Of a DNA stretch of 34,082 nt, positions 2,494 through 29,295 are shown in pieces (within the stretch, counting starts at the first letter, position 1; each line of letters opens with the position of its first letter). Made by a program: the position numbers and the translations under genes. The notes beneath the pieces were generated by a model that was given only the letters and a program-made list of their open reading frames with translations, had not been told where the DNA came from and made no database searches. This DNA comes from Candidatus Poseidoniaceae archaeon. GTDB taxonomy: Archaea > Thermoplasmatota > Poseidoniia > Poseidoniales > Poseidoniaceae. The DNA lies in NCBI GenBank assembly GCA_028822955.1, contig JAPKCL010000002.1:1-34082 (forward strand). The letters are read 5' to 3'.

Positions 2494-2494
2494 C

Positions 2495-8482: not shown

Positions 8483-8491
8483 GTGATGTAA

Positions 8492-8720: not shown

Positions 8721-8726
8721 ATAGAT

Positions 8727-11765: not shown

Positions 11766-11792
11766 TCTCAATACCTGACCCTAAGCAATCAT

Positions 11793-11875
11793 CCCTCGGT
11801 TCGAGGGAAGAGCCGCTGAGGGGGCTGTTTCGACGGCCCTCTCAGCCCCCCCTGCTTCTTCTTCTTTCTACTTTT
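11793..11875 (+). terminator. Two stem-loops followed by a C/T-rich tract downstream of the 1012-aa gene
   Basis: The first hairpin is CCCTCG-GTT-CGAGGG (11793-11807). The second is GCTGAGGGGGC-(10 nt)-GCCCTCTCAGC (11815-11846), with an 11-bp stem containing one G.U pair. It is followed by CCCCCCTGCTTCTTCTTCTTTCTACTTTT. Confidence 0.5.
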
Positions 11876-12128
11876 AATTCACAGAGATTTCTCTATGAAT
11901 TCAATCTTCTTAATTCAAGATGCCTTGACTTATGAGATTTATTTTGATATTTATTCCTTTTTGATAAAAACTATCACCGCTAATTTTGAATTATTCAATC
12001 ATTTTATTAGTCTGAAATCTATACTTTGTAACTTTTACAAATAGAATGTACCAGTTATCTCGGGTGATGTGGTTCAGCAAGTCGTTTACAATCATAAATC
12101 CAATCCCTGAAATCAAACATTTCGCACC

Positions 12129-12141
12129 CCAATCCCTATAA
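12129..12141 (+). promoter_or_regulatory. Possible TATA-like element (CTATAA) overlapped by the second copy of a CCAATCCCT direct repeat, upstream of the giant ORF
   Basis: CCAATCCCTATAA at 12129-12141 lies about 40 nt upstream of ATG 12179. An identical 9-mer occurs at 12100-12108. Confidence 0.3.
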
Positions 12142-12178
12142 GGGGAGCAAGGCGTGGGATGCTTTGCATACAATCCGT

Positions 12179-15100
12179 ATGAAGGTGAATGACATGTTGG
12201 GAATTACAAACAAAAAGAAAAAAACTGTCTTTAACGGAATTGGCGTAGCACTGTTGTTGTGCGCATTGATGGCCCTAATGCCTATGGCTGGGTTTGTCGA
12301 TAACAACGCAGGTGATGTGGAGTTTGTAAACACAAACGAAACAACGGAGAATGATTTCTTCGCTTTGCCAGACACGAAAGAAACAGTAGAATACGAAAAT
12401 GAACCATCCGAAGAATTAATCGGAATGAGAGACCAAACAACCAAAACGTTCGTCCAAGAAGATGGCGATTTCGTGCAACTAACGCACGATTCTCCAGTAC
12501 ACTTCATGGGTGACGATGGGGCCTGGACAGATATAGATCTGAACATCAAAGCCACAGCAAGCGGTTGGGAAGTAATGGATAACTCCTTTACAACTCAATT
12601 CGGTTCTGAGATGGCATACGGTGTCGCAGTTCAAGTCAACCAGTTCGTCGACCCAATCATCGTTGGAATTAATCCAACGCTGATGACTATCGACGAAACA
12701 GGAACAGCTCCTCAACCATTTGAAGCCGCTCCATCGAACGATGAAGTGACCGTAGGTGGAAACATGATTCGATATCCTGTCGCTGAAGGGTTCGCTATCG
12801 ACTATGCAGTCGAGAACACACAGCTCAAACAGAATCTCATCATCAGTGAGCGTCCGGTTCTTCAACCAAACGCAGCTTGGTTCGGTTTCTCTGAAATCAT
12901 GCAAATTCCATCTGGATACGCCCTTTTCCTTGGAGAAGACATGCTCGGTGAAGAAATTACTCAAACTCAAGATGCTCTCGACATTCGAAACATTGAGACC
13001 GGTGAATTGCTCGCTCAAATCCCGTCTCCAGTCGTTATCGAAGATGGCGCTGAAGAACCTTATCTTGCAACCTACTTTATCCAAGTCTCTGGTTCTCAAG
13101 TACTGATCTCAACAGTTGTTGAAACAGATTGGCTGTTGTCCGATGACCGCGTTTTCCCGCTCGCCATCGATCCAACAATCAAGGTATACAGCGCCGGTGG
13201 AGGTTATTGTTACAAGAACTACAACCGTTGCTACGTTGGTAACAACCGTTATTTGTACACCTATTACTCGCAACAGAGATATCAACCATACAGCCGTTAC
13301 ACGTTTAGCTCTTCAAGCAATTTACCAACCGGTGCAACAGTTGAATCTATCAAAGTCCATCAACGATGGAGTTACAAATCTGGTGCTTCGACAACTAACG
13401 GTGTGAAAATGTCCGTTCTTGAAGCCTGTGGCGCAGGAAGTTCTTCTTACGGATATACTATTCCAACTGGTACATGTTCTGGAGCACTTGCTACATCAGC
13501 ATACAGTTTTTCTAGTACTCAATACAACAGTGCTAACGCTCGTAAGCTCATTGTTTCCATCTTCAACAGCAACATTGTTGATTCCTTTACTCCTGGTTCT
13601 GGATGGAAGGTCGGAGAAGTCTGTACGACAGCAACTTCGTGTTCCTCCAGCACATCAGCAGGATACATTACCAGTGCACAAACTGCATCTTCTTCTGTTG
13701 GTATTGGATTGACTTTCCCTACGAGTGCTTACCTGTACTCGTATTCGGGTCACAGTGGATCTACAAACTCTTACATTGCAGTCACCTATTCTGGTGGTTC
13801 TGACACCGACGCTCCCGCTTCAGGTTTCACCGCATATACTGATGTCACCTCATACATTGAAGGTTCTCGAACTTTCTTTACGACTTTGACTGACCTCTCT
13901 GGAATCGATACCACCTCTGCCAACATGCCAACACTCAACTATGCTCTCGACAACGGTTCATACACCAGCGTCGCAGCAACAAGTATCGGTACATGTGCTG
14001 CCTCTTCATCATCATGTCAATTCAAGGCAACAATCCCTACAATCTCCGCAGGAGAATATGTTGAATACTATTGGAAGTTCCAAGACCTTAATTCTGGAAG
14101 CAATGGTGTAAACGTTGGATACGATCCAGTCCTAACAGGAACGCAATCAACACCAACACCATACTTCTTCGCAGTTGAAGATATTGAAGACGCAGGCGAC
14201 GACAAAATGTTGCGTGTTTTGACAACAGATGTTTCCGCAGGCGGCTACGCCCAAATGTCGAACACAAACATCGACCGCCAATTCACCCACTTTGACGGAA
14301 GCGACGAGTTCTACTTCGAATTCGATGTTTCTGACTGTGGAACTGGCTCCGCTGCATGCTGGTACACAGCTGGTGGAAACTATGCATACCAATATGATAA
14401 CTGGGCAGTACAACACACAACCATTGCTCCTGCAGGATCATATGGAATGTCGACATCTTCAACCCAACGCTCAAACATTGACTTGTTACACACCCGAGAT
14501 GACGGTTACCTCACAGTCGATGCTAAGAACGGTCCAGGAATGAATTTGCTTTACCACTTTAACAGCGGTGAAAACGCATTCGCAATGGTTGGTGTTGGAA
14601 GTTCACCATCCATCGACTCAAAGCTATCTGCCGGAACATCTGCAGATACCTCCAACGGATACGGCTACACAGACTCATTCATTATTAAACTTGAATCCGA
14701 CAGTGCAGCAACCGCAAATGGAGCAGAAACTTACGGTGGTAACATGGGTCTCTTTGCCTTCGGTAACGCCACTGGCGGTGCTGGAACTAACGCAAACCGA
14801 CTCTGTGTCACCTCAAACGGTTTCACATACATCATGCGCAGTCCCGCATCTTACCGTGACGCTTGCCGATCATACTACCTCTACGGTGGCTCATCATCTG
14901 GTGCTCCATCCTATGCATGGTCTGGCTGGGCTCTCGGAATGGGATACTACGGTTCAATGGCTGGTTCAGGAGACGTTACCTACAAGATTGGTGGCGTTAA
15001 ACCATTGCCTGATACCTTCGCACCTGTAGTAGACCACTCTGGACTCGCAGACTCGCACAGCACATCTCGAACAGTCGCTGCAATCATTTCCGATGCAGGA

Positions 15101-18100
15101 GACCCAGCGAGTGGACTCAATGTCAGCACAACAGCTGGTGTTGGACCAACAATGGTTTACCGCGTTACACCAGACGGTGGTACTACAGGATCTTGGATCT
15201 CTGAAGTTATGTCGCCTGGAACTGGAACCACACGCACTGAGTGTGTTCTCGCAGCATGTACTTGGTCTTCCGATATCGAAGACCTCGACCGTGGAGATTC
15301 TGTTGAATACTACATGACCTCTCAAGACGTTTCACCTGTTGCTGCTGGAATTAACACTGTAACAACTACAACTGAATCGTTCTCTGTTGGCGACCCGAAC
15401 AAGATGTTCATCGTCGAATGGAGAGACATGCAATACACCAACAATGCTCAACGATGTTCTTACCAAGCAGTATTCTATGACGTTACAAACGAAATCGAAT
15501 TCAAATACGATGATGCTTGTAAGAATTCATACGATGCAGCTACAGTTGGTTTCATGGATCAAACCCGTACTAAGGGTCAAACAATCCGACACTCCACAAG
15601 TACTGCTTACCTGAACGGGGCTAACGCTCACACCAACAACTACCGCATCTCAACAGACAGCGGTGATGGTTCTTGGGAAGCATTTGACCGTGGAATGACT
15701 GGACTAGTGAATGCAGAATCATCCGATATCATGGGTTCAACTGGTGGTACTCCGTCAGGTTACTACTGTGCATCCGGATATTACTGGAACACTTGGAGTA
15801 CCAAGTGTGCTGATAACATTGCAATGCCTGATGGTTTCAATTTCACTTACTTCGGAACTGACTACAACCATACCGATTCAAACGACCGTGTCCACCTTGG
15901 TCGTCACGGTAACATGAACTTCATCAGCAACGGAGCAACATCCGTCGTGCGTAGTATGACTACATGGTATGGAAACATGCCGCAGTTGCCATACTCATCG
16001 AGCAGTTACGCTCGTGCAGGACTAATTGCACCTTACTGGTCTTACTACGGAACTTACTACTGCTACCAAAACTCTGGTTCTGATTGCGGTGTATACTACC
16101 GAACCATGCCTTTCGAAGGCAAGGGTACTGACGTAACCTCTGACATCACTCAAGATACGACTTGGGATTTGCAAGACAGCCCAGTGCGCATCAATCCAAC
16201 CAGCGATTATCTTTCGATTTCCGCTAAATTGACGATTGAAGCAGGAACAGTCATTCAAATCGGTGCTAACAAGGGAATTTCCTTTGACGGTGCATGCGAT
16301 CAAATGACCATTAACGGTAACAGTTCTGCCCATGTTCTTTTCGAAGCACTTGACGCTGAGTGGCTTGGAATGGCATTCACTGACTCCTGTTCAACAGGAA
16401 CTGATGACCGCCACGTCTTCTCTTACGTTGATTTCAAGAACACCTCTGATGCCGCAATTGCAGCAGGTTCCCGCCACGGCGGTTCACCAAGCAGCAACGG
16501 CAACGTTGGTAACTTCACTATGGACCACGTAACCTTCACCGATGTCGGCTCTGCTTTCGCTCACGGAAGTGGACAAGGCACAGTTGTTTCGATGACCGAA
16601 TTTAGTGTTGATGGAGCAGATGACTCATGTTTCGACTTTGCCGAAAACTCCGTCGTTTCATTGACTGAAGGTGACTTGAAGAACTGTAACACAGACGGCG
16701 GCTCCGGTAACGGTGCAATCGTGAATGTTGCAGGCTCTACTACAGGTTCACTGTTCTTAGAAAACACAACCATTCAGAATTCGTATGTCAACTTGATTGC
16801 TGTCGACTTTGGTATGGTTACTGTTTCCAACGTTACTGCAACTGCAACTTCGGCACAAACCGGAGCTGCATTGGATTCCGCTGCTGGCGCAGGTGCAGAA
16901 GTTGTATTGTTCAACTTCGACGCCGATGACTACGCTTCGGTTTCAATTGATGCAATGAATACAGTAATGATGACGACCGTTGACTTTGGTTCAGCATCCA
17001 TGAACCTTTTCCCTGCTGGAGTTTCGACTTCCTCAGCGACTGGTGCATCCGGTGATAACGCAATCTTTGATGACGTAACTGCTGGAAACATGATGATGCG
17101 CAACCTTCAACCTGGAACATTCAAGGATATGTCCGTTGGAGATTTGACCATCACTGGTGACCCAGCAACTTCAGCAGTTGTGGATATGGAAAACCTTGAC
17201 GCAGGAGATGTAACCATCTCAGGCTGTGGTTGGAATGTCATTGCTTCGAGTATGACTGCAGAACGCCTTTCTTCGAATGGATGTTCCGCTGCCGCAAACA
17301 CACTCGTTGTGTCTGACTCGACTCTTACGCACACATCAACTACCGATTCTGTAATCTATGCACGATACTCTGACATCACACTTGGTGAAAGTGCAGTAAC
17401 ATCTACTACAGCAGGATTGAACAACATTTACCTCGCTCAAGCAGATACAAACTCGGATATCCGACTTGTGGCTGTTTCTCAAGGTGGTAGTGATTGTGCC
17501 GATGCTGCTGGTTCCACTGGAAACTGTGACGTCAATGTTGCTTCTACCTCCTCCGAAGTTTGGTTTGGCGGACTAGCAACAGTACGTACCTACCGAATGG
17601 CTTTGGTGAGCGGAGTTGCAACTCAAATCTTCAAGTCTGGACACACAGTCACCGCAGCGGTGATTGACAGTTCCAGTTCTGAATTGTTTGAAGTTGGAAG
17701 TCACATTACTGACACAGCAACAGCAACACTTGGTTCAACCAGTGTTTGGGTTATCACAGGCGATGAGTCTGGAAATACCTACGTTGATCACAATCTGCGT
17801 GCGTTTGGTCCGGCTGGACAAAACGAAACCATGTCGACTGACTCTTGGTACCCTAGCACCGGTGGATTCACCATTGGTAGCAGCATTGACCTCTTGCTCG
17901 AACCAGCCCCGGTTGATTTCGATCAAGCAGGAATGGACTGTGCTTGGATGGACGCTTATGTTGACCCAAGTAACGGTGCAGGTCTCCCTACGAACGGAAC
18001 CACAGCAAATGGCAACACAATCTTCGAATTCGATGGAACACCAATGACGCTCTCTGCTGATTTGACCCTCGATGGTTGCCAAATGATTTTGAAGGGTTCA

Positions 18101-21100
18101 GCTCTCAAGGTTAAGAGCACTGCAACAAGCAGCCCAGTTCTAACATTGACCAATGGCGGTATCTTGACTGTAACTGTTTCACCAGATACTGGTGCAATCG
18201 GCGCAGTACGTGCAATCTCCAGTTCATACGGTCTACATTTGGATATCGTGAGCGGTTCCCTCATCCTTGATGGTGGAATTCTTCGTGATGTTGCTCAAGA
18301 TTCAACCACTGGTGCCGCTCTTATGATCGGCGAAGGTGCAACCTTGGTCATGATGGACGGTGCAACAATCTACGGTTCATCTACAAGTAGCGATACCATG
18401 TCAACTGTCAAGGTTGATGGCGGTACTATCACTATCGCAGATTCCTCCATCATTAACAATGGACAAACAGGAACTGCACTTTGGGTAGAAGCAGCTGGTG
18501 GCACAATTGAGAATGTAATTGTCAAGAACGCAGCAGTTGGTATTCAAGCCTTCAACGGTGCTCCTCAAGTTGATGGATTCACTTCAACCGACAACGTTGT
18601 TGGTGTCGATGTCTACGGTGGTATGTCACTACCTACCATTTACCGAAGTACACTCTTGAGTGGTCAAAGTACAGGATGGACAACCTACAAGATTGACTTG
18701 TCAACTTACCTGGCTAACGATTACCTCCAAGTTGGATGGAACAGTATCTACGGTGGCGGAAACGCTCACCCAACCTACAACTATGCAACAAGTAAGTACT
18801 ACATGATTACTGACCGATACAACATTGAATTGGAAGATACCAATGGAAACGCCTGGAACATTACCAGTGCAGATCAGTTGGGATACTACCCATACAATGC
18901 TGAAGACCCAGCGTCTGGTGATGGTGCACACGCAACCTACACCGAAGGCGCTGCTGGTGGCGTTCCAAGTTGGGACTGTAACACCTATGGTTACAACTAT
19001 GGTCCAAACTATCCGTCTTCAAACACAGGATACTTCTACAGTATCTGGCAAGCATTGACTGGAACAAATCCTGGATATCCTGGCTACTATCAAGCACCGG
19101 ATCAATTCGGATTTGATTGGGAAAACATCGACGGTGTTAGTCCATCAGGTTCCTACGCTTACTATCCTTACCACTACTGGGGTTACTACTACACCTCTTA
19201 CCACGGTGGCGCAGCAGGTACTACCTTTGCACCTCCTGAAGGATACGCTGGTTCATACAACGTTTGTCTTGACTATGCATACTCATACTACATGAGTGCA
19301 GGTCAAGGTGCTCGTTTGACTATGCCTATGATTGATATCTCAGCAAGTAACCTTTCAAAGGCTTCCTTGTACATCGATGTCCTTCACAACCGTGCAGATA
19401 ACTTCCAAGACCGCTTGGAGTTCGTTGCTCGTGCAAGTAACAGTGTATCGACTCTTATCGACGGAACCTATGTCCGTGAATCTGGAACTCCGCTCTTCAA
19501 GGACGGAACCATCACTGGTGCTGACACTGGTGTCTCAGTTGGTGGCGGATTTGCTGCTGCTCACTTCCAAGACATCACCGTGACGAACCCGACTGATTCC
19601 GGTATGGATATCACTGGTCAAACCGCTTCCACACTCGATGGATTTGATGTGACTGGTGGAAACTACGGTGTCCTCATTGGTAACTCTGCATCCGGTTCAA
19701 TGGATCTTGAGAATATTTCACTTGATGGTCAAGCCACTGCAGGTGTCTACTATGCAAAGGATATCACAGGAACTCTCTCAGGTTCTGTGGTTAACAGCGC
19801 AGGTGCCGCATTCAAGTATGGCCCTAATACCGATAATGATGTTGATTTCAGTAGTATTTCGATTGCCTCGAATGCCGTTGGTATCGAAACATCAGGAACC
19901 GGCGATATCAGTATGACTGATGTCACAATGGCCAACACAAAGGATGTCGTCATCAAGAGTTCAGCCAATGTCGAATTTGTTGAAGGAACAGTTGATTCAA
20001 CTACCGTTGAAGTCACTGGTGCTGGAATGTTTACTCGTATGCGTCAACTCGATGTTACATTGACTGCTGATGCTGCAGGTATTCCTGGCGCATCAGTCAC
20101 TTTACTCGATGCCAATGGAGCTTCCTCCGGAAACGGTGTTACTGACTCAGTCGGTATTGCTCAAGACCTCAAGTACGTTACTGCTACAGTCGATTCTACT
20201 GGATTAACAACGCCTTCATTGGCTGGTTATCAAGTAATGAGTGTTGCCAAGGTTGAATATTACTACAACTCATCCTCGGACAACGTTGCTGATTTCCGCT
20301 ATGCAAAGCAATCAGTTTCAATCACTGACACATCCGGTAACGCAGTTACAGTTCCAATGACTACGAAAATCACTGAACGTGTTTGCTGGTACTCTACGAG
20401 TACTGCATACACAACGGTTGCACCTTGTGCTGCTTCGTTCTCCTCTGCTGGAACTCGAAGCCTCAGCGACGGTGACGGTGGTACAGTTACAGAGTATGGT
20501 TACAGCGGTGGGTTGACAGCAAGTCAATCCAACAAGGTCATCATGCTTGACGTACCTTACTTGTATCTGAAGAGTAACGTGGATTATAACTTCAATGGCT
20601 CGACTCTCTTGTCGACTGGAGCATATGATTTCTACAATACTCAACGCTGGTACAGTAGTTACCCATACGGATCCGGTGTCACTATGAACGACGCTGCTGT
20701 TTACGGTGTTGCATCAGATCCTTCTGATGGTTCAATGTATGGTATTGAGATTGGTTACTACGGTTCTCCAATTGTTAACTTCGAAGCAAACAATACTGTT
20801 TTCTCGAACATTGCAAAGATTGAGATGTCTCATGGATACAAATACTACACTAACTACATTTGGGAAATTGAAGAAGTATCAATTACGAACTCTACAATCT
20901 CTCACTTCCAAGGATATGAGCAACTTAACAATGCTATCCTCGTGTCTGATATTTGTATGATGCTTCGTGGTGGTGACGGTGCAATTGTTTCTGGTAATAC
21001 CTTCAACGATTGTGGTGTTGGTGTAATGCTTGATCGTTCACCATACTACCGCTACCACACTGCGGCAGATTATGGTGCAGACAACGCAACAATTTCGAAC

Positions 21101-24100
21101 AACGTCTTCAACGATGGTGGCGAAATTGCAGATATCTGGCTCTATACCAATGGATTCTCCGATAATGCAGTAATTTCTGACAACGTGATCAACAATGGTG
21201 ACGCTGCAGCAGCTGCAATCGCTGTTTACAATGGTGCGCACACAGGTACTACCATTTCTGGTAACACCATTAACGCTGCAACAGATGGAATCATGATGCT
21301 CTCTGGTGTGGATTACCACATCACTGACAACACCATCAACGGCGCTGGCGACTCTGCTTATGCTGGAATTACAACATCACTTGGATATGGTGACATCGAT
21401 AATAATACACTCGTCGACACAGATGGTGGATTGATTATCGCTGGTGCACAATCAATACCTGCTCCTACAACCTCACTTTGTTCGATTGCAGGTAACTCGT
21501 ATGGATCACTTTCGACCTGTACTGCTGTACTCGCAGCTGGTAAGACAATGTCTGTTAACATTGAAACTGATTCTTGGGGCTATGAAGCAAGTATCGACAT
21601 CGTCAAGCCTGATGGAACAACTGACAGTTGGTCTACCTATACTTTTGGTAGTAACACAGCCTACACGCCTCTGGTTAGCTATACCGCTGCTGGAAACTAT
21701 TCACTGACTCTCCGAGACAGTTATGGTGACGGTGGAACCACTGTCTACATGGTAGAAGGTGGCGCTGCAGGTGGATACTCTGGACCAACGATTGCAGACA
21801 ACAGCATTACGTCCTCCGTTGGACGAACTGCTCCTGGTGCCGTCGGTCTCGTGTTAGAAGACTGTTCAAGTGTTACAATCAACTCTGCTCGAAACGCAAT
21901 AACATTGTCTGACAATGCTATGGTGATTAGTGACTGTGATGTTATTGATTTGGCCTCTGTTCTTACCGGACAAGGCGACTCAATGACTGTTGGTATTGAT
22001 GCAGATGACGTGAATTCCGATTCACTGACTCTCTCCGGAACTATCATTGATGGATTCGCTACTGGTGTTGAAAAGACCAGTGGAGATCTAGTTTTGACCG
22101 GTGATGCAGTACTTTCAGGTGATGATTACGGTGTCTATGTTGATGATGCCTCAGTTATTGCTATCAATGCTGCAGTCAATGGTGGAAACCTAGGAACTGG
22201 TCTTCACGTCGTTGACAGTGATGATGTTTGGGTTTACCCAATGAACGCTTCAGGTTTCGTTGGTATGTACGTCGAAAACTCACCATTCCGTTGGGATGGT
22301 GGCACATCGACTGCTACTACAACTCTCCAAGTTGTTGAATCTCAAGGGTCAGTCGAAAACATGACTTGGTCCACTTCAACAACTCAGATTGATGCTGGCA
22401 GTAACGCATACGTGACTTCGATTGGTAACACAATCGACGCTGCTAAGTTGGTCGTTGCAACCTCTGCAACCATCGATGAAGCAAACTTGTTCACCATGGA
22501 CTCGACTCACTTGACTGCAGCGATTAACCCTGCTACCGATAACGAAGTCTCAATGTTGATTCAATCGACAGACGGAACTCGTGCTTCATATGTCTCAACT
22601 GGTTTCCAACCGGAAGTCATGGCTGTTGATGGTGATGACTCTGACTGGAACGGTGGTAACGCCCTCAACCCATCCGGCTATGCAATGCCTGGTGTTATGA
22701 GTGGAGACGGAACCAACGACATGATGGTAACATACATCGAAGGTGACGACCTCTACATCGGTTTGACCGGTGAAGATCTCTCAACAAGTGATGCACTCAT
22801 CTACCTCAGCGTCGATGGCAGTGGAAGCAGCACCGGATACAACCTCGGTGGCGCACACACATTGCCATTCCAAGCAAACTACGTGCTTTGGGCTGACAGC
22901 GATGCATCAACTGGATATGCCTTGTACAGTTACGGTTTCCTCGGATGGAGTCCAACATCACTCAGCTCTGCTAGTGTTGATGTGTCTTCCTCGAGCACCT
23001 TGACTGAAATTTCCATCCCATTCTCACGAATTGGTGGAACTCCAAGTCAGATTGACATTGTTGCAATCGTTCAGGGAGAGACAACTGCTGATGTCAGCAC
23101 TGTCCACCCAACGCAAGCAATGAATGCATCGAACACTCTACAATCGTTCACTGAATACATGACTGTCGAGCTTACGCACGACGATCTTGCTGATGGTTCA
23201 ATTGATGACGAAGTTCTTGTCTACCGCTCTTACAAGGGCTCAAACACTCCAAGTGTTGCAAAGAACTACGATGTTATGGTCAAGACATCAGCAGACTGTG
23301 CCTATGATTGGGCCGTCGCTACTGACTTGTCACTTGCTACCAACATTGCAATCAGCCTTGACATGGCTCGTGCTTGCCCTGAAATCCAGGCAACACTCGC
23401 TGACATCACTGTTACAGAAGACTCGTCTGCTTACACTTTCAGTCTCACGAACCTTGTTGACGATGTACAAGACCTTGAAGCAGATCTCTCATGGACTTCT
23501 GCAGATGGTAACCTCGTTGCATTCGACAATGTTCTTGTTGACTGGAACCAAAACGGCCACACAGTGACCATCACTCCTTTGACGGACCAATTCGGTACCC
23601 TCGAATATGAGTTTGAAGTCACTGACAGCCACGGTTTGACCGACTCGAAGAACATCTCTTTCGAAGTAACGAACGTGAACGATGCACCTACTATCTGTAA
23701 CGTCGAAGAGAATGATTGTATGCCAATCTTCTCCGTCGACGATATCTTCAACAACATCTTGGCTGAAGGGTTCGGAACACATACCAAGTCTCTTGGTAAT
23801 GTTTCAAACGCTTCCAAGTCCTATGTTCGAGACATGGCAAACGAGCAATCACCTGACCGTCAAGTCTACGATTGGAGCGCATCTGTTGATTCAACATGTG
23901 TCGCATTTGCTGTGGAAGTTGATGCAATGAACTCTCTTGTAATTACCGAGAACAGCTCAAATGAAAAGGGCGGTACCTGTACTGTCACTATGCAATTGAC
24001 TGACAACGGTAACGAGAACACTGCTGCAATACCATTCGATGTCGACTTCTCAGTCGCACCGGTGAATGATGCTCCAGTGATTACTTTGCAAGACGTCGAT

Positions 24101-25867
24101 AGTCAGAACTTGTTCGCCAATGGTGCTGGAGACCGTGCTACTGGTGAAGGAGAATACATTACCATGACTGAAGATGATACCACAGCTGATAACCTCACTT
24201 GGGATCTTCTACCTTTGATGAATGATATTGACCATGATGTACCAGCAGACCTTACTTGGACTGTTGAACCAACCAGTCAGTGTACGTACACCAACTACTT
24301 TACAACAGCAATCATTGGCACAGACCTCGTGTTCTCATTGATTCCAGACGCAACCACAAACGGTTACGATTGGGAAGTTGATTACATGAACGACAACGGT
24401 GTTCACCAATTGCGACCAAGTGGCCAGACTTTCTGTGCCATCAACTTGGTTCTCAAGGATACTGCAACTGCACCATCTCATACACCTAACTATGATACAA
24501 CGCTTATGCCAATCGCTGATTACCAGCAAGGCCAAGATGATGTAGTAATGTACGTCACTGTTGAACGTGTCTCAGAAAATGTCGCTGACTACTCTCTCGA
24601 CACTGTTTCTGGCATTGACTTCAATGAGATCACCAACGTCATGACTGGCACCTTTGTTCCTGTAACAGCGAACATTGACGCTGGTGGCGATGAAGGTCCT
24701 TACAACTACGACCACATGCTTGCAGTGACTTTCCACACGGACGGACACGGTGAAGAAGAGTTTACTCGCTACTACAACGTTCCAGCATACGGAACCAGTA
24801 TCGATGTGAATGAAAATGTGTACATCACTAAGGATACAACCAAGATCGAAGTGTCGATGGATGTTCTGACCTGTTTGAACGACCCATGTGACCTCACAGC
24901 ACCTGCTAGTGAGCGTTTCCAAGTCGATGACCCACAGTCTCACCGCTCTAACAACGGTGGTTCTCAAGGATCTGACTGGTCGAACCCAGGTCAATATGGA
25001 CAGAATGCATCTCAGACCTCTGAACGCCGACCTATGCTTGAAGACAAGTTCTGGTGTAACAACCGTCTTACAACACTCGATCTTGATACTGCTGAAGCAA
25101 ACTCCAACTGGGGCAAGTGTAACGAATACGCTGCAGGCTCAGGCTCATTCGGTGCAACCGGACAAGCTCTACCTAACGTAGTTCGTACCATCGGTGCAAG
25201 TTCAGTGCCTTCGTTTGCTCCAAGTATTGTAGTGGTCAGTCTAACTGGTCTCTTTGTGAGCGCTCTAGCCTTCTCCAGCCGTCGTGCAGACGATGAAGAA
25301 GAAGTTACAGTGAGTCTCGAAGACAATGATATGGCAGTGAGCCCAGTTATTGCAACTATCTTGATGGTTGCAATCACCGTGGTTCTTTCTGGTGTAATCT
25401 ATGTTTGGGCAAGTAGCCTGGCAGATACTGATGTCAAGGGTGTTCCTCGGGTCACTTTTGATATTGAAGATATTGACAGCTTCGATGTTAACAACGGACA
25501 CTGGCGAATCAACGTCCAGTCCGCTGAGACTGACTTAGCAACACAAGCAGTTGAAGTCCGTGTATTCTACGTGGACGGCAACGGTGATGCTCAGACGAAG
25601 ACCTGGAATATGGCAGACACCAACGGCGTGTATGGCTTCAACCCAGCAAACAGTGACTCAATGGTTACATTTGTTGACCAAGTCAACTCCGATGGCGACA
25701 ATAAGGTTTCAACCTTCAATACCGGTGATACCATCTTCGTGCGAACACACGACACAGATGGAACACCTCTTGAAGATGTGACAATTACTCTATCCTACGC
25801 TCCTAATGTAGGTCAAGGTGCGCTTCTGCGCTCTTGGAGTGGTTTGTCATACGACCTTAGTGCTTGA
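12179..25867 (+). CDS. Giant (about 4560 aa) secreted or anchored surface protein: multiple right-handed beta-helix (PbH1/CASH-like) blocks, cadherin-like modules, Tyr-rich segments, a C-terminal TM anchor and a fused pilin-like module
   Basis: This is a single open frame of 13.7 kb. The start is taken at ATG 12179 (MKVNDMLGITNKKKKTVFNGIGVALLLCALMALMPMAG, a signal/anchor); the ORF track uses TTG 12164. PbH1-type repeats include SGNTFNDCGVGV, ISNNVFNDGGEI, ISDNVINNGD, ISGNTINAATDG, ITDNTINGAGD and IDNNTLVDTDGG (about 20990-21450). Other beta-helix-like blocks lie at about 16180-17400, 18050-18625 and 19500-20010. Cadherin-like module ends VNDAP occur at 23675-23689 and 24062-24076. The TM anchor is at 25223-25276. 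Confidence 0.9.
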   Translation: MKVNDMLGITNKKKKTVFNGIGVALLLCALMALMPMAGFVDNNAGDVEFVNTNETTENDFFALPDTKETVEYENEPSEELIGMRDQTTKTFVQEDGDFVQLTHDSPVHFMGDDGAWTDIDLNIKATASGWEVMDNSFTTQFGSEMAYGVAVQVNQFVDPIIVGINPTLMTIDETGTAPQPFEAAPSNDEVTVGGNMIRYPVAEGFAIDYAVENTQLKQNLIISERPVLQPNAAWFGFSEIMQIPSGYALFLGEDMLGEEITQTQDALDIRNIETGELLAQIPSPVVIEDGAEEPYLATYFIQVSGSQVLISTVVETDWLLSDDRVFPLAIDPTIKVYSAGGGYCYKNYNRCYVGNNRYLYTYYSQQRYQPYSRYTFSSSSNLPTGATVESIKVHQRWSYKSGASTTNGVKMSVLEACGAGSSSYGYTIPTGTCSGALATSAYSFSSTQYNSANARKLIVSIFNSNIVDSFTPGSGWKVGEVCTTATSCSSSTSAGYITSAQTASSSVGIGLTFPTSAYLYSYSGHSGSTNSYIAVTYSGGSDTDAPASGFTAYTDVTSYIEGSRTFFTTLTDLSGIDTTSANMPTLNYALDNGSYTSVAATSIGTCAASSSSCQFKATIPTISAGEYVEYYWKFQDLNSGSNGVNVGYDPVLTGTQSTPTPYFFAVEDIEDAGDDKMLRVLTTDVSAGGYAQMSNTNIDRQFTHFDGSDEFYFEFDVSDCGTGSAACWYTAGGNYAYQYDNWAVQHTTIAPAGSYGMSTSSTQRSNIDLLHTRDDGYLTVDAKNGPGMNLLYHFNSGENAFAMVGVGSSPSIDSKLSAGTSADTSNGYGYTDSFIIKLESDSAATANGAETYGGNMGLFAFGNATGGAGTNANRLCVTSNGFTYIMRSPASYRDACRSYYLYGGSSSGAPSYAWSGWALGMGYYGSMAGSGDVTYKIGGVKPLPDTFAPVVDHSGLADSHSTSRTVAAIISDAGDPASGLNVSTTAGVGPTMVYRVTPDGGTTGSWISEVMSPGTGTTRTECVLAACTWSSDIEDLDRGDSVEYYMTSQDVSPVAAGINTVTTTTESFSVGDPNKMFIVEWRDMQYTNNAQRCSYQAVFYDVTNEIEFKYDDACKNSYDAATVGFMDQTRTKGQTIRHSTSTAYLNGANAHTNNYRISTDSGDGSWEAFDRGMTGLVNAESSDIMGSTGGTPSGYYCASGYYWNTWSTKCADNIAMPDGFNFTYFGTDYNHTDSNDRVHLGRHGNMNFISNGATSVVRSMTTWYGNMPQLPYSSSSYARAGLIAPYWSYYGTYYCYQNSGSDCGVYYRTMPFEGKGTDVTSDITQDTTWDLQDSPVRINPTSDYLSISAKLTIEAGTVIQIGANKGISFDGACDQMTINGNSSAHVLFEALDAEWLGMAFTDSCSTGTDDRHVFSYVDFKNTSDAAIAAGSRHGGSPSSNGNVGNFTMDHVTFTDVGSAFAHGSGQGTVVSMTEFSVDGADDSCFDFAENSVVSLTEGDLKNCNTDGGSGNGAIVNVAGSTTGSLFLENTTIQNSYVNLIAVDFGMVTVSNVTATATSAQTGAALDSAAGAGAEVVLFNFDADDYASVSIDAMNTVMMTTVDFGSASMNLFPAGVSTSSATGASGDNAIFDDVTAGNMMMRNLQPGTFKDMSVGDLTITGDPATSAVVDMENLDAGDVTISGCGWNVIASSMTAERLSSNGCSAAANTLVVSDSTLTHTSTTDSVIYARYSDITLGESAVTSTTAGLNNIYLAQADTNSDIRLVAVSQGGSDCADAAGSTGNCDVNVASTSSEVWFGGLATVRTYRMALVSGVATQIFKSGHTVTAAVIDSSSSELFEVGSHITDTATATLGSTSVWVITGDESGNTYVDHNLRAFGPAGQNETMSTDSWYPSTGGFTIGSSIDLLLEPAPVDFDQAGMDCAWMDAYVDPSNGAGLPTNGTTANGNTIFEFDGTPMTLSADLTLDGCQMILKGSALKVKSTATSSPVLTLTNGGILTVTVSPDTGAIGAVRAISSSYGLHLDIVSGSLILDGGILRDVAQDSTTGAALMIGEGATLVMMDGATIYGSSTSSDTMSTVKVDGGTITIADSSIINNGQTGTALWVEAAGGTIENVIVKNAAVGIQAFNGAPQVDGFTSTDNVVGVDVYGGMSLPTIYRSTLLSGQSTGWTTYKIDLSTYLANDYLQVGWNSIYGGGNAHPTYNYATSKYYMITDRYNIELEDTNGNAWNITSADQLGYYPYNAEDPASGDGAHATYTEGAAGGVPSWDCNTYGYNYGPNYPSSNTGYFYSIWQALTGTNPGYPGYYQAPDQFGFDWENIDGVSPSGSYAYYPYHYWGYYYTSYHGGAAGTTFAPPEGYAGSYNVCLDYAYSYYMSAGQGARLTMPMIDISASNLSKASLYIDVLHNRADNFQDRLEFVARASNSVSTLIDGTYVRESGTPLFKDGTITGADTGVSVGGGFAAAHFQDITVTNPTDSGMDITGQTASTLDGFDVTGGNYGVLIGNSASGSMDLENISLDGQATAGVYYAKDITGTLSGSVVNSAGAAFKYGPNTDNDVDFSSISIASNAVGIETSGTGDISMTDVTMANTKDVVIKSSANVEFVEGTVDSTTVEVTGAGMFTRMRQLDVTLTADAAGIPGASVTLLDANGASSGNGVTDSVGIAQDLKYVTATVDSTGLTTPSLAGYQVMSVAKVEYYYNSSSDNVADFRYAKQSVSITDTSGNAVTVPMTTKITERVCWYSTSTAYTTVAPCAASFSSAGTRSLSDGDGGTVTEYGYSGGLTASQSNKVIMLDVPYLYLKSNVDYNFNGSTLLSTGAYDFYNTQRWYSSYPYGSGVTMNDAAVYGVASDPSDGSMYGIEIGYYGSPIVNFEANNTVFSNIAKIEMSHGYKYYTNYIWEIEEVSITNSTISHFQGYEQLNNAILVSDICMMLRGGDGAIVSGNTFNDCGVGVMLDRSPYYRYHTAADYGADNATISNNVFNDGGEIADIWLYTNGFSDNAVISDNVINNGDAAAAAIAVYNGAHTGTTISGNTINAATDGIMMLSGVDYHITDNTINGAGDSAYAGITTSLGYGDIDNNTLVDTDGGLIIAGAQSIPAPTTSLCSIAGNSYGSLSTCTAVLAAGKTMSVNIETDSWGYEASIDIVKPDGTTDSWSTYTFGSNTAYTPLVSYTAAGNYSLTLRDSYGDGGTTVYMVEGGAAGGYSGPTIADNSITSSVGRTAPGAVGLVLEDCSSVTINSARNAITLSDNAMVISDCDVIDLASVLTGQGDSMTVGIDADDVNSDSLTLSGTIIDGFATGVEKTSGDLVLTGDAVLSGDDYGVYVDDASVIAINAAVNGGNLGTGLHVVDSDDVWVYPMNASGFVGMYVENSPFRWDGGTSTATTTLQVVESQGSVENMTWSTSTTQIDAGSNAYVTSIGNTIDAAKLVVATSATIDEANLFTMDSTHLTAAINPATDNEVSMLIQSTDGTRASYVSTGFQPEVMAVDGDDSDWNGGNALNPSGYAMPGVMSGDGTNDMMVTYIEGDDLYIGLTGEDLSTSDALIYLSVDGSGSSTGYNLGGAHTLPFQANYVLWADSDASTGYALYSYGFLGWSPTSLSSASVDVSSSSTLTEISIPFSRIGGTPSQIDIVAIVQGETTADVSTVHPTQAMNASNTLQSFTEYMTVELTHDDLADGSIDDEVLVYRSYKGSNTPSVAKNYDVMVKTSADCAYDWAVATDLSLATNIAISLDMARACPEIQATLADITVTEDSSAYTFSLTNLVDDVQDLEADLSWTSADGNLVAFDNVLVDWNQNGHTVTITPLTDQFGTLEYEFEVTDSHGLTDSKNISFEVTNVNDAPTICNVEENDCMPIFSVDDIFNNILAEGFGTHTKSLGNVSNASKSYVRDMANEQSPDRQVYDWSASVDSTCVAFAVEVDAMNSLVITENSSNEKGGTCTVTMQLTDNGNENTAAIPFDVDFSVAPVNDAPVITLQDVDSQNLFANGAGDRATGEGEYITMTEDDTTADNLTWDLLPLMNDIDHDVPADLTWTVEPTSQCTYTNYFTTAIIGTDLVFSLIPDATTNGYDWEVDYMNDNGVHQLRPSGQTFCAINLVLKDTATAPSHTPNYDTTLMPIADYQQGQDDVVMYVTVERVSENVADYSLDTVSGIDFNEITNVMTGTFVPVTANIDAGGDEGPYNYDHMLAVTFHTDGHGEEEFTRYYNVPAYGTSIDVNENVYITKDTTKIEVSMDVLTCLNDPCDLTAPASERFQVDDPQSHRSNNGGSQGSDWSNPGQYGQNASQTSERRPMLEDKFWCNNRLTTLDLDTAEANSNWGKCNEYAAGSGSFGATGQALPNVVRTIGASSVPSFAPSIVVVSLTGLFVSALAFSSRRADDEEEVTVSLEDNDMAVSPVIATILMVAITVVLSGVIYVWASSLADTDVKGVPRVTFDIEDIDSFDVNNGHWRINVQSAETDLATQAVEVRVFYVDGNGDAQTKTWNMADTNGVYGFNPANSDSMVTFVDQVNSDGDNKVSTFNTGDTIFVRTHDTDGTPLEDVTITLSYAPNVGQGALLRSWSGLSYDLSA
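25205..25303 (+). other. C-terminal-anchor-like tripartite element inside the giant ORF: VPSFAP + about 18 hydrophobic residues + SRRADDEEE
   Basis: VPSFAP (25205-25222), SIVVVSLTGLFVSALAFS (25223-25276) and SRRADDEEE (25277-25303). The architecture parallels the true C-terminus of the 8727..11765 protein. Confidence 0.6.
25331..25867 (+). other. In-frame archaeal type IV pilin-like module (class III signal-peptide-like helix + small beta-rich domain; DUF1628/Pilin_N-like), 178 codons from ATG 25331
   Basis: MA-VSPVIATILMVAITVVLSGVIYVWASS matches the archaeal prepilin/archaellin N-terminal consensus (..SPVI..IL(M/L)VAITV.L...). It is followed by PRVTFDIED...WRINVQ...VEVRVFYVDG, typical of small archaeal pilin-like proteins. 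No stop codon separates it from the upstream giant ORF. Confidence 0.65.
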
Positions 25868-29222: not shown

Positions 29223-29295
29223 GGGTCTGTGGTCTAGTGGTTATGACACCGCCCTTACACGGCGTTGATCGAGGGTTCAAATCCCTCCAGACCCA
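29223..29295 (+). tRNA. tRNA-Val (anticodon UAC)
   Basis: GGGTCTG-TG-GTCT-AGTGGTTA-TGAC-A-CCGCC-CTTACAC-GGCGT-TGATC-GAGGG-TTCAAAT-CCCTC-CAGACCC-A forms a full cloverleaf with a 7-bp acceptor stem and a 5-bp T-stem. The anticodon TAC is flanked by T33 and A37. There is one C.U mismatch at 27:43, and no CCA is encoded. Confidence 0.93.

Follow-up and report, generated by a model that had tools for sequence, protein, structure and literature searches.

The locus and its giant gene

A single gene of 4,562 codons and a stop (12179..25867, plus strand) fills 40% of the window, by which we mean the whole 34,082-nt stretch of Poseidoniaceae DNA analyzed here. In the ORF listing of the window its frame spans 12164..25867 and comprises 4,567 codons when counted from a TTG at 12164; the first ATG, at 12179, yields a protein of 4,562 aa, and the second, at 12194, lines up with Met1 of an orthologue (P0057). 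As the preliminary description of this DNA had stated, one frame stays open for 13.7 kb and the others hold only short ORFs, the longest within 12179-25867 being 206 aa. At a stop-codon frequency of ~5% per codon, 4,567 open codons cannot have arisen by chance.

The window neighbors of the giant gene include the PolD small subunit and pelota, and the locus has a surface-protein gene on one side and HAD/PolD on the other. The giant gene was at the identical syntenic site in all 80 of the best Poseidoniales species loci, upstream of HAD in every one of them and with the PolD small subunit also there in 61. No peptidase, assembly ATPase, or platform genes were present in the window or within 10 kb across the 80 loci.

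The 13.7-kb ORF is a real single gene. Searches for tandem DNA repeats in the gene and for internal repeats in the protein returned none, leaving nothing repetitive to collapse at either level. Two relatives were colinear with the ORF, at 91% nucleotide identity across 14 kb (L005) and 87% across 19 kb (L006), and independent assemblies supplied full-length, uninterrupted orthologues (P0057, 4,595 aa; P0212, 4,578 aa; P0064, 4,572 aa; P0070, 4,539 aa; P0073, 4,640 aa; P0078, 4,372 aa; P0062, 5,559 aa), so that the proposed comparison with related giant ORFs gave intact proteins of 4,372-5,559 aa. Because repeats were absent, relatives colinear, and orthologues intact in independent assemblies, an assembly artefact was rejected. 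Moreover, dN/dS (omega) against L006, over 3,563 codons, was 0.108 overall and 0.09-0.18 in each 400-codon block, that is, purifying selection was uniform along the gene.

Split orthologues, which the preliminary description had named as a result that would speak against one product, were encountered in part: the orthologue was broken across several frames in two long-read assemblies (L001 and L003), and a stop preceded the C-terminal module described below in 12 of the 80 loci. However, FTHFS and pelota are likewise broken in L003, which is therefore error-prone, and every frame switch in L001 is covered by the intact 3,639-aa ORF of an 88-90% identical relative. Of the GTDB species loci, 45 had a complete 10-kb flank; these held nine of the 12 stops, and in 36 of them all 3,333 upstream codons were open. 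We therefore regard a chimeric or collapsed assembly, or a pseudogene broken in relatives, as extremely improbable; the many independent intact orthologues, the absence of repeats, and the uniform selection essentially refute it.

Features of the ectodomain

The protein (all features are given on the plus strand) carries near its N terminus a hydrophobic segment, either a signal peptide or a signal anchor (KKKK followed by GIGVALLLCALMALMPMAGF, aa 15-41; 12221..12301), whose hydropathy peaks at 2.29 and which is kept in the orthologue consensus. The protein is rich in Thr, Ser, Gly, and Asn and carries a net charge of -364; the N-terminal signal, the acidic composition, and the PolD small subunit and pelota neighbors agree with the earlier reading of an archaeal surface giant. 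The many N-x-S/T sequons that had been claimed were not there; the sequons are depleted, with 32 against 58.2 ± 6.3 expected (1,000 shuffles; shuffle minimum 39).

The landmarks named in the preliminary description were recovered in place, namely an IDPT motif followed by a Tyr/Arg/Cys-rich patch (aa 330-392; 13166..13354), identified from the sequence and without a Pfam or NCBIfam match, the stretch VTLTADAAGIPGASVTLLDANG, the PbH1-type repeats, the SYGDGG motif, and two VNDAP motifs. A carboxypeptidase-regulatory-like domain, which had been placed at 20040-20200, gave no match to CarboxypepD_reg-type models at E <= 5 in the sequence chunks covering aa 2191-3248; the assignment is not supported at the sequence level, though a resemblance in fold alone may exist. 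Additionally, a NIDO-like stretch (aa 1032-1101; 15272..15481) fell below threshold (Pfam NIDO E = 0.014, 15.8 bits vs a cutoff of 25) and sits in a strongly conserved block, with many invariant columns at 1080-1111. Two 30-aa segments within aa 2146-2213 (...GWTTYKIDLS...QVGWNSIYGGGN...; 18614..18817) rank second and third in conservation along the protein, at 0.81-0.82 versus a mean of 0.593.

The right-handed beta-helix blocks proposed earlier are candidates, with sub-cutoff similarities and one profile match. Specifically, block A (aa 2060-2157; 18356..18649) and block B (aa 2431-2579; 19469..19915) scored 22.2 and 21.6 bits, respectively, against the Pfam Beta_helix model (PF13229), below its cutoff of 25.9, and the very weak block C (aa 3202-3352; 21782..22234) had E = 0.73 with the same model. 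The PbH1-type repeats (aa 2938-3091; 20990..21451) had no Pfam match, and a 10-orthologue profile covering aa ~2981-3088 aligned to the beta-helix of the poly-beta-D-mannuronate lyase PDB 7o79 at E = 1.3e-3. The next domain, recognized in the orthologue alignment and marked by SYGDGG (aa 3088-3203; 21440..21787), is lineage-specific; it was missing in five of nine orthologues, which carry a cupredoxin domain ~100 aa downstream instead.

The cadherin-like modules were upheld. They form an array of cadherin/Ig-like beta-sandwiches with VNDAP linkers (aa 3697-4240; 23267..24898), modeled by AF2 with pLDDT ~80-90, and Foldseek searches with this model retrieved protocadherin EC1-4 and an RTX-adhesin tetra-repeat (E = 7.6e-12 to 5e-11). 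Within the array, aa 3737-3831 (23387-23671) matched Big_9 at 24.5 bits in the chunk scan, above the cutoff of 23.6, and Cadherin_5 at 23.1 bits, below the cutoff of 26.5; the array also matched the tandem-95 repeat model (1.8e-10). It is followed by a membrane-proximal, Cys-containing stalk (aa 4241-4339; 24899..25195) with a conserved RRPxLEDxxWCNN element; R, P, and N columns are invariant, and AF2 confidence across the stalk is low.

Altogether, ~90% of the giant protein lies outside Pfam and NCBIfam families, as had been anticipated. The term mosaic, in the sense of shuffled modules, does not fit, since the protein aligns with its orthologues in the same order along its entire length, at 30-53% identity, and a domain has been swapped locally at one place only. 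This non-repetitive, presumably Sec-exported ectodomain of ~4,300 aa looks like an adhesin, and weak or generic domain similarities suggest that it could act in surface adhesion.

A pilin-like cassette at the C terminus

At the outer edge of the first C-terminal transmembrane helix (TM1) lies a V-P-S-F-A-P motif (P-x-F-x-P; 25205..25222), of which F4346 and P4348 are invariant across both clades of homologues. TM1 itself (aa 4345-4367, followed by RR; 25211..25279), a predicted stop-transfer helix running from outside to inside, has a hydropathy of 2.03, is helical in both AF2 models, and is present in 140 of 144 fused homologues. Next comes a 19-aa loop (RRADDEEEVTVSLEDNDMA, aa 4368-4386; 25280..25336) that resembles a class III leader and ends in Ala, with the predicted cleavage site between A4386 and V4387 (nt 25336/25337), where the junction reads EDNDMAVSPVIATILM. 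From a Sec signal followed by the stop-transfer topology of TM1 we infer that the loop is cytoplasmic, and thus that the cleavage-type site faces the cytoplasm.

Of the 144 fused homologues, 142 have A or G at position -1; residues -3/-4 are acidic, while loop charge varies from -10 to +7. The loop (RR...DDxA) has an ending shared with the leaders of stand-alone Poseidoniaceae pilins and with pilin precursors in the PDB, which end ...DDSA/VSPVIG and ...EERA/VSPVIG at the cleavage context. In 103 of 137 sequences, 39-41 aa separate the F of P-x-F-x-P from the predicted site, and the RRPxLEDxxWCNN element of the stalk is missing in the second clade. NCBIfam sorting-signal models gave no match to the P-x-F-x-P region at E <= 10, and the giant protein extends 195 aa beyond the RR, unlike C-terminal sorting signals; on these grounds a PGF-CTERM, VPXXXP-CTERM, or other archaeosortase signal was rejected.

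The preliminary description had the protein end in a stalk and a TM anchor. TM1 is indeed present, but the second hydrophobic segment is the helix of a type IV pilin and is followed by a beta-sandwich. The module after the loop begins with VSPVIATILMVAITVVL, and its alpha-1 helix (VSPVIATILMVAITVVLSGVIYVWASSLA, aa 4387-4415; 25337..25423) belongs to Pilin_N: both Pilin_N (PF07790; 32.5 bits, and 37.7 in the chunk scan, vs a cutoff of 25.2) and TIGR02537 (34.6-39 bits vs a cutoff of 20) exceeded their cutoffs, all 10 full-length orthologues matched the pilin model, and profiles matched the PDB pilins 8fj5, 8gi2, and 9myg (E = 9e-9 to 2e-6). The helix is the most conserved 30-aa window in the 4,562 aa (0.957) and has dN = 0. 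The globular beta-sandwich (aa 4416-4562; 25424..25864), which lacks Cys, has omega = 0.014, and omega of the cassette is ~0-0.014.

An AF2 model of the module (overall pLDDT 78.7; ~85-94 in the sandwich) comprised the helix and the beta-sandwich. Its top Foldseek matches, modest in E-value, were archaellins and archaeal filament subunits (5z1l, 8rh5, 8rey, 7ofq, and 9eq7; E = 2e-4 to 1e-3, probability 0.99-1.00), and FlaF (4p94) was also among the matches (E = 2.2e-3). The module lies ~160-195 aa from the C terminus in all 144 fused homologues. Archaeal type IV pilins have their signal at the N terminus and here the predicted site is at residue 4386 of 4,562; the protein is a variant of the archaeal type IV pilin-like proteins, not a canonical member.

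Stand-alone pilins and portability of the cassette

Stand-alone pilins of Poseidoniaceae, found in at least 120 marine loci, have the leader M[KNQR]NENRNEEA/VSPVIATILMVAITVVLAGVLYVWASSLA (e.g., P0151, NCBI MDP6869831.1), and their helix is nearly identical to the alpha-1 helix of the giant. The fused helix tracks that of the stand-alone pilins within each lineage: in the second clade, VSPVIAIILMVAITIVLAGVLWLWVSGL occurs in fused and free pilins alike, and P0334 is one of the free pilins whose likeness to the fused modules extends from end to end. The cassette, consisting of P-x-F-x-P, a stop-transfer TM helix, a leader-like loop of ~20 aa, and a pilin, also terminates unrelated ectodomains of 0.8-2.8 kaa, including proteins of 0.8-2.4 kaa in a second archaeal lineage, and the complete cassette proteins examined carry N-terminal signals as well. 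The cassette is portable.

In the window a Met (Met4385) directly precedes A/VSPVI, and short 'pilin' proteins are a frequent output of gene callers on fragments, both of which would suit a pilin gene translated separately from an internal in-frame start, the long ORF then having two products. We consider this very improbable. The residue before the Ala is Met in only 20 of the 144 homologues (A, S, Q, E, D, or T in the others), which led us to reject a separate in-frame gene; further, no stop ever separates the two parts in intact orthologues. The short 'pilins' with a giant-type body were edge fragments or occurred only on contigs of <= 1.6 kb, crossing over inside the shared helix-coding DNA, and where the leader was canonical (80 loci), the pilin body was never of the giant type.

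Proposed processing at the internal site

The arrangement suggests that the giant adhesin is cut or docked by the pilus machinery of the cell. In the mechanism that we propose, Sec would export the ectodomain of ~4,300 aa and TM1 would stop transfer, leaving the [DE][DE]xA/VSPVI site on the cytoplasmic side of the membrane, which is where class III signal peptidases work. Such a peptidase could then cut between A4386 and V4387 to release two products: a giant adhesin that TM1 keeps in the membrane and that ends in a short acidic tail, and a mature pilin of 176 aa that may join a filament or its machinery as a minor or priming pilin. Since the fused helix nearly matches that of the stand-alone pilin, the filament or machinery entered would be the same. 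Synthesis as one polypeptide would couple production of the adhesin, and probably its placement too, to the pilus. We give about even weight to a cut at this site, with a giant adhesin anchored in the membrane and a minor pilin as its products; cleavage, co-assembly, and adhesion are all predicted from the protein sequence.

The FlaFind-type consensus expects K, R, D, or E at position -2. Against cleavage, this residue is mostly uncharged in the homologues, and the Poseidoniales loop is acidic rather than basic. Moreover, FlaF, an uncleaved archaellum protein, matches the module, at modest Foldseek E-values. The absence of peptidase, assembly ATPase, and platform genes from the window and from 10 kb around the 80 loci also counts against it; for these genomes such genes are known from the literature. 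Because the products would be unlinked after the cut and the pilin body is without Cys, the selective reason for the fusion is also left unexplained.

These points bear on a second reading, in which TM1 would pair with the pilin helix as a hairpin that stays uncut, and the pilin-like part would dock the adhesin laterally to the base of a pilus or archaellum, to the associated machinery, or to the S-layer. Such use of an archaellin-like helix in unprocessed form is known from ArlF/ArlG (FlaF/FlaG). The FlaF soluble domain among the Foldseek matches (4p94), the JGI family name, and the unusual -2 residue are all in keeping with such an anchor, and, as an N-terminal fusion fits no known type IV filament, a role outside the filament would avoid the topology problem. 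Yet a plain anchor needs no cleavage-type site, whereas the small -1 and acidic -3/-4 residues are kept in two clades despite differing loop charge and match those of the stand-alone pilin leaders; in addition, the ArlF/ArlG models miss the module and the locus is outside the archaellum operon. An uncleaved anchor is thus a serious though rather unlikely alternative.

That adhesin and pilin are made as one chain would be accounted for if P-x-F-x-P were a second, sortase-like site, with the TM1-loop spacer excised by two cuts and the ectodomain, folded as one chain with its own pilin, staying on it non-covalently to be carried out on the filament. PGF-CTERM and PEP-CTERM are tripartite signals of a motif, a TM helix, and basic residues, a layout that the motif, TM1, and RR mimic; the F and P are invariant in both clades at a fixed spacing to the peptidase site, and the conserved juxtamembrane RRPxLEDxxWCNN is present. 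The sorting-signal models, however, did not match the region, an archaeosortase-like gene was not seen near the locus, and the second clade lacks the juxtamembrane element. Double processing is improbable and wholly a matter of speculation.

Returning to the internal cut by a prepilin peptidase, we tentatively propose, at slightly less than even confidence, that the cassette constitutes an undescribed archaeal surface-protein module in which this peptidase cuts internally, possibly with a second cut at P-x-F-x-P, so that the ectodomain would be either separated or mounted on the filament. Large Sec-exported ectodomains would on this view be synthesized as polyproteins that include a pilin of their own.

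Implications for Poseidoniales

No other archaea are as abundant in the surface ocean as Poseidoniales (Marine Group II), which are uncultured. To our knowledge, prepilin peptidases act on N-terminal leaders only. If the proposed processing is correct, the cassette would be the first internal site in a prepilin peptidase substrate, extending the substrate rule, as well as a new way to couple adhesins to filaments and a new portable sorting and anchoring system, present in the planktonic archaea of greatest abundance and in at least one further lineage of archaea.

The JGI family name is 'FlaG/FlaF family flagellin'. The public names 'type IV pilin', 'FlaG/FlaF family flagellin', and 'archaellin/type IV pilin N-terminal domain-containing protein' cover 4% of the protein and mislabel the remainder.

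As candidates for attachment to particles and algae, published genomics could offer only flotillin, thrombospondin-like genes, and an archaellum-like operon devoid of chemotaxis genes (PMC6461757, PMC6336850). All Poseidoniaceae (MGIIa) genera have an archaellum-type FlaHIJ locus without chemotaxis genes, for which a role in adhesion was proposed (PMC6461757, PMC6336850), and in an MGII-dominated sample a pilin gene with the same N-terminal domain as here (DUF1628) was one of the euryarchaeal genes with the highest transcription (PMC5069720). Here, a giant adhesin-like ectodomain is physically joined to a pilin whose core helix is also that of the lineage's stand-alone pilin, and this offers a concrete attachment hypothesis for Poseidoniales. 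The presence of a pilin part behind the TM helix also changes the likely function of the protein from that of a plain TM-anchored surface giant.

Comparison with known systems

Our literature search found no description of an architecture of giant ectodomain, TM helix, and pilin. We know of no pilin cassette in halomucin or the SPEARE proteins. Halomucin of Haloquadratum and the SPEARE proteins of Nanohaloarchaeota (PMC6642349) are, like the giant, multi-kiloresidue, acidic, and exported, and come from archaea that are uncultured or difficult to grow; unlike them, the giant lacks detectable internal repeats, is conserved over its whole length, and occupies the same site in 80/80 species loci.

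As in PGF-CTERM/archaeosortase A, PEP-CTERM/exosortase, and LPXTG/sortase systems, the cassette has a motif at the outer edge of a TM helix, basic residues, and portability. In contrast to those C-terminal signals, the chain goes on into a prepilin, with no model match and a sortase-like partner not identified. ArlF/ArlG (FlaF/FlaG) share with the module an archaellin-like hydrophobic helix followed by a beta-sandwich, the Foldseek match to 4p94 being the only link. Scans of the module with the ArlF/ArlG family models gave no match, and the module differs in its Pilin_N-type helix, conserved cleavage-type site, and location outside the archaellum operon; membership was rejected on the missing model match, the non-archaellum locus, and the cleavage-type site.

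With the Pilin_N/DUF1628 archaeal pilins, such as PilA1-6 of Haloferax volcanii and the PilA2 filament of Natrinema (8gi2; also 8fj5), the module shares the alpha-1 signature VSPVI[AG]xILMVAITV, acidic residues and then Ala before the helix, and a helix followed by a beta-sandwich. The described members are proteins of ~130-200 aa with an N-terminal class III signal, whereas in the giant the class III-like signal does not start until residue 4368 of 4,562, after a Sec signal, an ectodomain of 4,300 aa, and a TM helix. Covalent joining of a pilin to an adhesive module is also seen in bacterial modular pilins, for example PilB and PilC of Streptococcus sanguinis (PMC8179133), where it links filament and adhesin; their module is C-terminal and outside the filament, unlike the giant part here, which is N-terminal and would need a cut for incorporation. 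Finally, the bacterial PilY1/PilC proteins and the large adhesin-like proteins of archaeal type IV pilus loci (Makarova 2016, PMC4858521; bioRxiv 10.64898/2026.04.22.720090), non-pilin adhesins that work with minor pilins, likewise tie a very large adhesin-like protein functionally to a type IV filament system. Those, however, are separate genes inside pilus loci, whereas the giant combines adhesin and pilin in one ORF, at a housekeeping locus far from the assembly genes.

Integrity and distribution of the giant gene

A single frame was open on the forward strand from 12164 to 25867 of the window, encoding 4,562 aa when counted from the first ATG (12179), and a second ATG at 12194 matched Met1 of the closest full-length orthologue in alignment. 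The longest ORF in any other frame across this span was 206 aa, confirming the uninterrupted giant ORF and the short competing frames of the preliminary description. Neither tandem DNA repeats within the ORF nor internal protein repeats (self-BLAST, E ≤ 1e-3) were found, rendering a collapsed-repeat artefact implausible.

Intact, colinear orthologues were recovered when giant ORFs of related archaea were compared, as had been recommended. Specifically, an exhaustive search of representatives gave proteins of 4,595, 4,572, 4,539, 4,640, 4,372, and 5,559 aa, several of which were present in multiple independent assemblies and one of which (MEC8576648.1) is named 'archaellin/type IV pilin N-terminal domain-containing protein' at NCBI. 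Full-length orthologues were colinear with the giant from end to end at 53%, 44%, 44%, 35%, and 30% identity (BLASTP), and at the nucleotide level the related loci L005 and L006 were colinear with the window over 14 kb (91% identity) and 19 kb (87%), respectively. Of the 45 species loci with a full 10-kb flank, 36 kept an open frame through all 3,333 codons preceding the C-terminal module. Moreover, dN/dS against L006 was 0.108 over 3,563 codons and 0.09-0.18 in each 400-codon block. From one database, a homology search with the last 866 aa had returned only proteins shorter than 1,500 aa, but the possibility that orthologues are short or split was ruled out by the intact 4.4-5.6-kaa proteins and by tblastn colinearity. 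The gene was broken across several frames in two long-read assemblies; in one of these the formate-tetrahydrofolate ligase (FTHFS) and pelota genes were broken too, and in the other an intact 3,639-aa ORF of an 88-90% identical relative spanned every frame switch. We consider an assembly artefact essentially excluded as the source of the giant ORF.

Shorter versions of the giant were noted at two loci, one of 1,125 aa at the syntenic site on a TARA scaffold (L004) and one of 1,416 aa in a different upstream context on a 617-kb ENA contig (contig_14579_pilon, L002). The latter locus shows a direct duplication, with the FTHFS-flotillin block at both ends about 20 kb apart, which may be genuine or may have arisen during assembly. 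Additionally, mononucleotide runs of at least 4 nt were strongly depleted in the giant ORF (38, versus 72.9 ± 6.8 in codon shuffles), at 2.8 per kb as compared with 10-12.6 per kb in neighbouring genes, and the L001 orthologue (619-14254) was likewise depleted (1.4 versus 8.9 per kb). In an ORF of this length, slippage and frameshifts may have been selected against.

Archaeal housekeeping genes surround the giant gene. Directly upstream are genes for an ABC ATPase (3174-3872), an FtsX/MacB-type permease of 1,537 aa whose extracytoplasmic parts are very large (3869-8482), and a surface protein of 1,012 aa that has a signal peptide and, at its C-terminus, a TM helix (8727-11765). In L001, the giant orthologue is preceded by the end of a 1,006-aa product. 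Downstream are a HAD hydrolase, the PolD small subunit, CinA, a pelota/eRF1-like protein, formate-tetrahydrofolate ligase, and flotillin. No assembly or peptidase genes were seen near the giant gene. The only Rfam matches in the window were a tRNA-Glu(TTC) at 1156-1231 (reverse strand) and a tRNA-Val(TAC) at 29223-29296 (forward strand), and no sigma-70 promoter or terminator was detected ahead of the giant gene with a scan that is not made for archaea.

In a scan of one genome per GTDB species, from which the best 80 loci were taken, 79 were labelled Poseidoniales, Poseidoniaceae, Poseidonia, or generic Euryarchaeota, Methanobacteriota, or Thermoplasmatota MAGs. The remaining one (L038, NZEQ01000026.1), in which the cassette is at the contig edge, was binned in a 'Verrucomicrobiales bacterium' MAG and is probably a mis-binned Poseidoniales contig. 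The HAD gene was downstream in all 80 of these best loci and the PolD small subunit gene in 61, while the ectodomain region corresponding to aa 3300-4300 was upstream of the module in 79. The giant is a syntenic orthologue of Marine Group IIa.

An adhesin-like ectodomain

The giant protein is richest in Thr, Ser, Gly, Ala, and Asp, matching the composition first described, and 530 acidic residues are set against 166 basic ones. The 53 cysteines often occur as closely spaced pairs. The preliminary description had also pointed to many N-x-S/T sequons, yet these numbered 32 against 58.2 ± 6.3 in 1,000 shuffles (minimum 39), a depletion that is the opposite of the pattern for a heavily N-glycosylated surface protein.

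Most of the protein had been said to belong to no nameable family, and Pfam and NCBIfam indeed recognised very little in whole-protein or chunk-wise scans. With the whole protein, Pfam returned only Pilin_N and a sub-threshold Cadherin_5; in ten overlapping chunks, it returned Big_9 just over the cutoff, with three Beta_helix stretches and one NIDO-like stretch below threshold. The only NCBIfam match on the ectodomain was sub-threshold, to a tandem-95 repeat model. When PDB sequences were searched with a profile built from ten orthologues, the only matches were pilins and one beta-helix, that of a mannuronate lyase, which aligned with the PbH1 block of the preliminary description (aa ~2981-3088, E = 1.3e-3). 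Structure prediction covered the C-terminal 866 aa, for which the AF2 model (pLDDT 77.9) was a chain of beta-sandwiches with protocadherin EC1-4 and an RTX-adhesin tetra-repeat as best Foldseek matches (E about 1e-11); together with Big_9, these bear out the cadherin-like modules. A carboxypeptidase-regulatory-like domain, by contrast, went undetected in the chunk-wise Pfam scan. Because of these profile and structural matches, it is reasonable to describe the ectodomain as adhesin-like, with beta-helix blocks and a cadherin/Ig array, although for most of its length this is an extrapolation.

The term mosaic, applied to the whole protein at the outset, fits one place clearly, the remainder being colinear end to end. 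A 'SYGDGG' domain (aa 3088-3203) is present in the window's lineage and absent from five of nine aligned orthologues. In its place, these five (P0064, P0231, P0070, P0073, and P0078) have a cupredoxin domain of roughly 100 aa, inserted a little further downstream near window aa 3269-3329 (nt ~21983-22165) and absent from the window's lineage. Three of the inserts retain intact type-1 copper ligands (C-x2-H-x4-M), and in P0064 and P0231 these are degenerate.

At the other end of the protein, full-length orthologues share a conserved Gly just before the N-terminal hydrophobic segment (window 12221-12250), as in KTVFNG/IGVALLL in the window and FGG/IGV in the orthologue P0057. This context faintly recalls an archaellin-type site; neither Pilin_N nor TIGR02537 matched the giant's N-terminus.

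A type IV pilin cassette at the C-terminus

Hydropathy revealed three hydrophobic segments (aa 15-41, 4345-4367, and 4384-4415) rather than two. The TM anchor of the preliminary description is present as a hydrophobic helix, but the second C-terminal segment, overlooked there, is an archaeal type IV pilin helix, leaving the earlier picture of a surface giant supported in part and incomplete. Specifically, aa 4384-4415 scored 32.5 bits with Pilin_N (cutoff 25.2) and 34.6 with TIGR02537 (cutoff 20), both scoring higher in chunk scans, and the orthologue profile matched the PDB pilins 8fj5, 8gi2 (Natrinema PilA2), and 9myg (E = 9e-9 to 2e-6). The cassette comprises VPSFAPS followed by TM1 (IVVVSLTGLFVSALAFSS), a loop of RR, ADDEEEVTVSLEDNDM, and A leading to the predicted cut, the pilin helix (VSPVIATILMVAITVVLSGVIYVWASSLA), and a domain of 147 aa. 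Its AF2 model (pLDDT 78.7, about 90 in the sandwich) showed TM1, a disordered loop, a 28-residue helix, and a beta-sandwich, and the top Foldseek matches were archaellins of M. maripaludis, Oxiplasma, M. villosus, and H. salinarum, along with a Cuniculiplasma filament subunit. With export started by an N-terminal Sec signal and halted at TM1, a stop-transfer helix, the loop would be cytoplasmic and the pilin helix would re-cross the membrane from inside to outside, which is the prepilin topology.

Position -1 was A or G in 142 of 144 fused homologues, with acidic residues at -3/-4, so that the site looks like a peptidase site. A separate in-frame pilin gene was ruled out: the residue before the Ala was Met in just 20 of the 144, and since this Met is unconserved, the cassette is truly fused and an internal gene essentially excluded. 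The cassette is the most constrained part of the giant protein; the pilin helix was its most conserved 30-aa window (0.957, versus a mean of 0.593), and against L006 dN was 0 for TM1, loop, and helix, and omega 0.014 for the sandwich. The loop's net charge varies from -10 to +7. We also noted that synonymous divergence from L006 was lower in the cassette (25211-25864; dS 0.22-0.37) than the ORF mean (0.53), which may point to gene conversion involving the stand-alone pilin gene or to nucleotide-level constraint.

The geometry of the cassette, unlike its loop charge, is conserved: the invariant F of P-x-F-x-P was 39-41 residues ahead of the site in 103 of 137 sequences. The motif could in principle be a second processing site, with the ectodomain carried on its own pilin; neither PGF-CTERM nor VPXXXP models matched the cassette, and we regard this more speculative reading as improbable.

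The cassette is portable, ending unrelated proteins of 0.8-2.8 kaa in a second archaeal lineage and in P0077, and N-terminal signals were also present in the complete proteins of this kind that were examined. The giant has the helix and fold of type IV pilin-like proteins, but its class III-type signal is not N-terminal, as would define that family, and it is therefore classed as a variant rather than a member.

Fused and stand-alone pilins

The stand-alone Poseidoniaceae pilins are 163-182 aa long (60 complete genes among 80 loci read, L091-L170) and have the leader M[KNQR]NENRNEEA ahead of the cut and VSPVIATILMVAITVVLAGVLYVWASSLA behind it, the same ending as in the cassette loop and in PDB pilin precursors. 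This family was present at ≥120 marine metagenome loci, and one member (P0151) is named 'type IV pilin [Candidatus Poseidoniaceae archaeon]' at NCBI. The pilin body contained Cys in inspected members. In five long loci inspected, the gene (e.g., L121 4267-4782) was downstream of Sua5/YrdC-like and methionine-aminopeptidase-like genes and followed by a glycosyltransferase and epimerase cluster, with no assembly ATPase next to it.

In the second archaeal lineage, the cassette has a basic loop, for example one ending KKRKKGYRRDREA before the cut and continuing as VSPVIAIILMVAITIVLAGVLWLWVSGL. Its free pilins have the same helix as its fused modules and resemble them over the whole length; one (P0334) was confirmed as a stand-alone gene on 14 contigs, and three tandem pilin genes were present in L086-L088. 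The fused helix thus tracks the free pilin helix of its own lineage.

A set of proteins (P0286, P0312, and P0363-P0372) placed the giant's pilin body behind a canonical leader, solely on contigs of ≤1.6 kb. Short contigs (e.g., L089, 1,370 bp) joined the stand-alone pilin promoter and leader to the giant's pilin body and 3′ flank, with the crossover within shared helix-coding DNA. Among the 80 loci in which a canonical leader was read, a giant-type body never followed it. For these reasons, we rejected them as a natural experiment; the joins are probably assembly chimeras, brought about by some 90 nt of near-identical sequence, or rare recombinants or gene conversions.

Proposed processing and comparison with known systems

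Prepilins are processed by class III signal peptidases, which act on the cytoplasmic side of the membrane and cleave behind a small residue. In all known type IV filaments, the core encloses the N-terminus of the pilin, and therefore an N-terminally tethered pilin could not polymerise uncut. Because the helix agrees with that of the free pilin in a lineage-specific manner, and because the cleavage-type site is conserved, we argue that the pilin module shares its peptidase and filament with the free pilin, and on that basis we favour cleavage between A4386 and V4387, at about even confidence. Under this scheme, a class III peptidase would cut the cassette there, releasing a giant adhesin anchored by TM1 and a minor or priming pilin made in a 1:1 ratio with the adhesin and at the same place.

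The scheme gives no reason for keeping the fusion once the products have parted. The main alternative, to which we assign a lesser probability, is an uncleaved two-helix anchor like FlaF/FlaG, through which the adhesin would dock at the base of the filament, on the machinery, or on the S-layer; FlaF was the ninth Foldseek match of the cassette model, and ArlF/ArlG models did not match the cassette.

A FlaHIJ-type locus without chemotaxis genes is present in all MGIIa genera and has been proposed for adhesion (PMC6461757, PMC6336850), and in a sample dominated by MGII, a DUF1628 pilin gene was one of the most highly transcribed genes of Euryarchaeota (PMC5069720). Public databases already carry giant-family proteins, named as pilin or flagellin, and thus the sequences themselves are not new. 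In the limited collection of literature searched (MGII pilin, prepilin peptidase, DUF1628), no class III signal was described at a C-terminus or inside a protein, and the giant-pilin architecture was absent from the censuses of archaeal type IV filament systems of 2016 and 2026 (PMC4858521, bioRxiv 10.64898/2026.04.22.720090) and from MGII genomics papers.

The mechanism is testable and would potentially extend the substrate rule of prepilin peptidases. Among known systems, bacterial modular pilins and PilY1-type adhesins likewise link adhesin and filament; in the giant, the parts come in the opposite order. The cassette also recalls PGF-CTERM-type signals in form and portability; unlike these, it matches no such model, and its chain continues past the basic residues.
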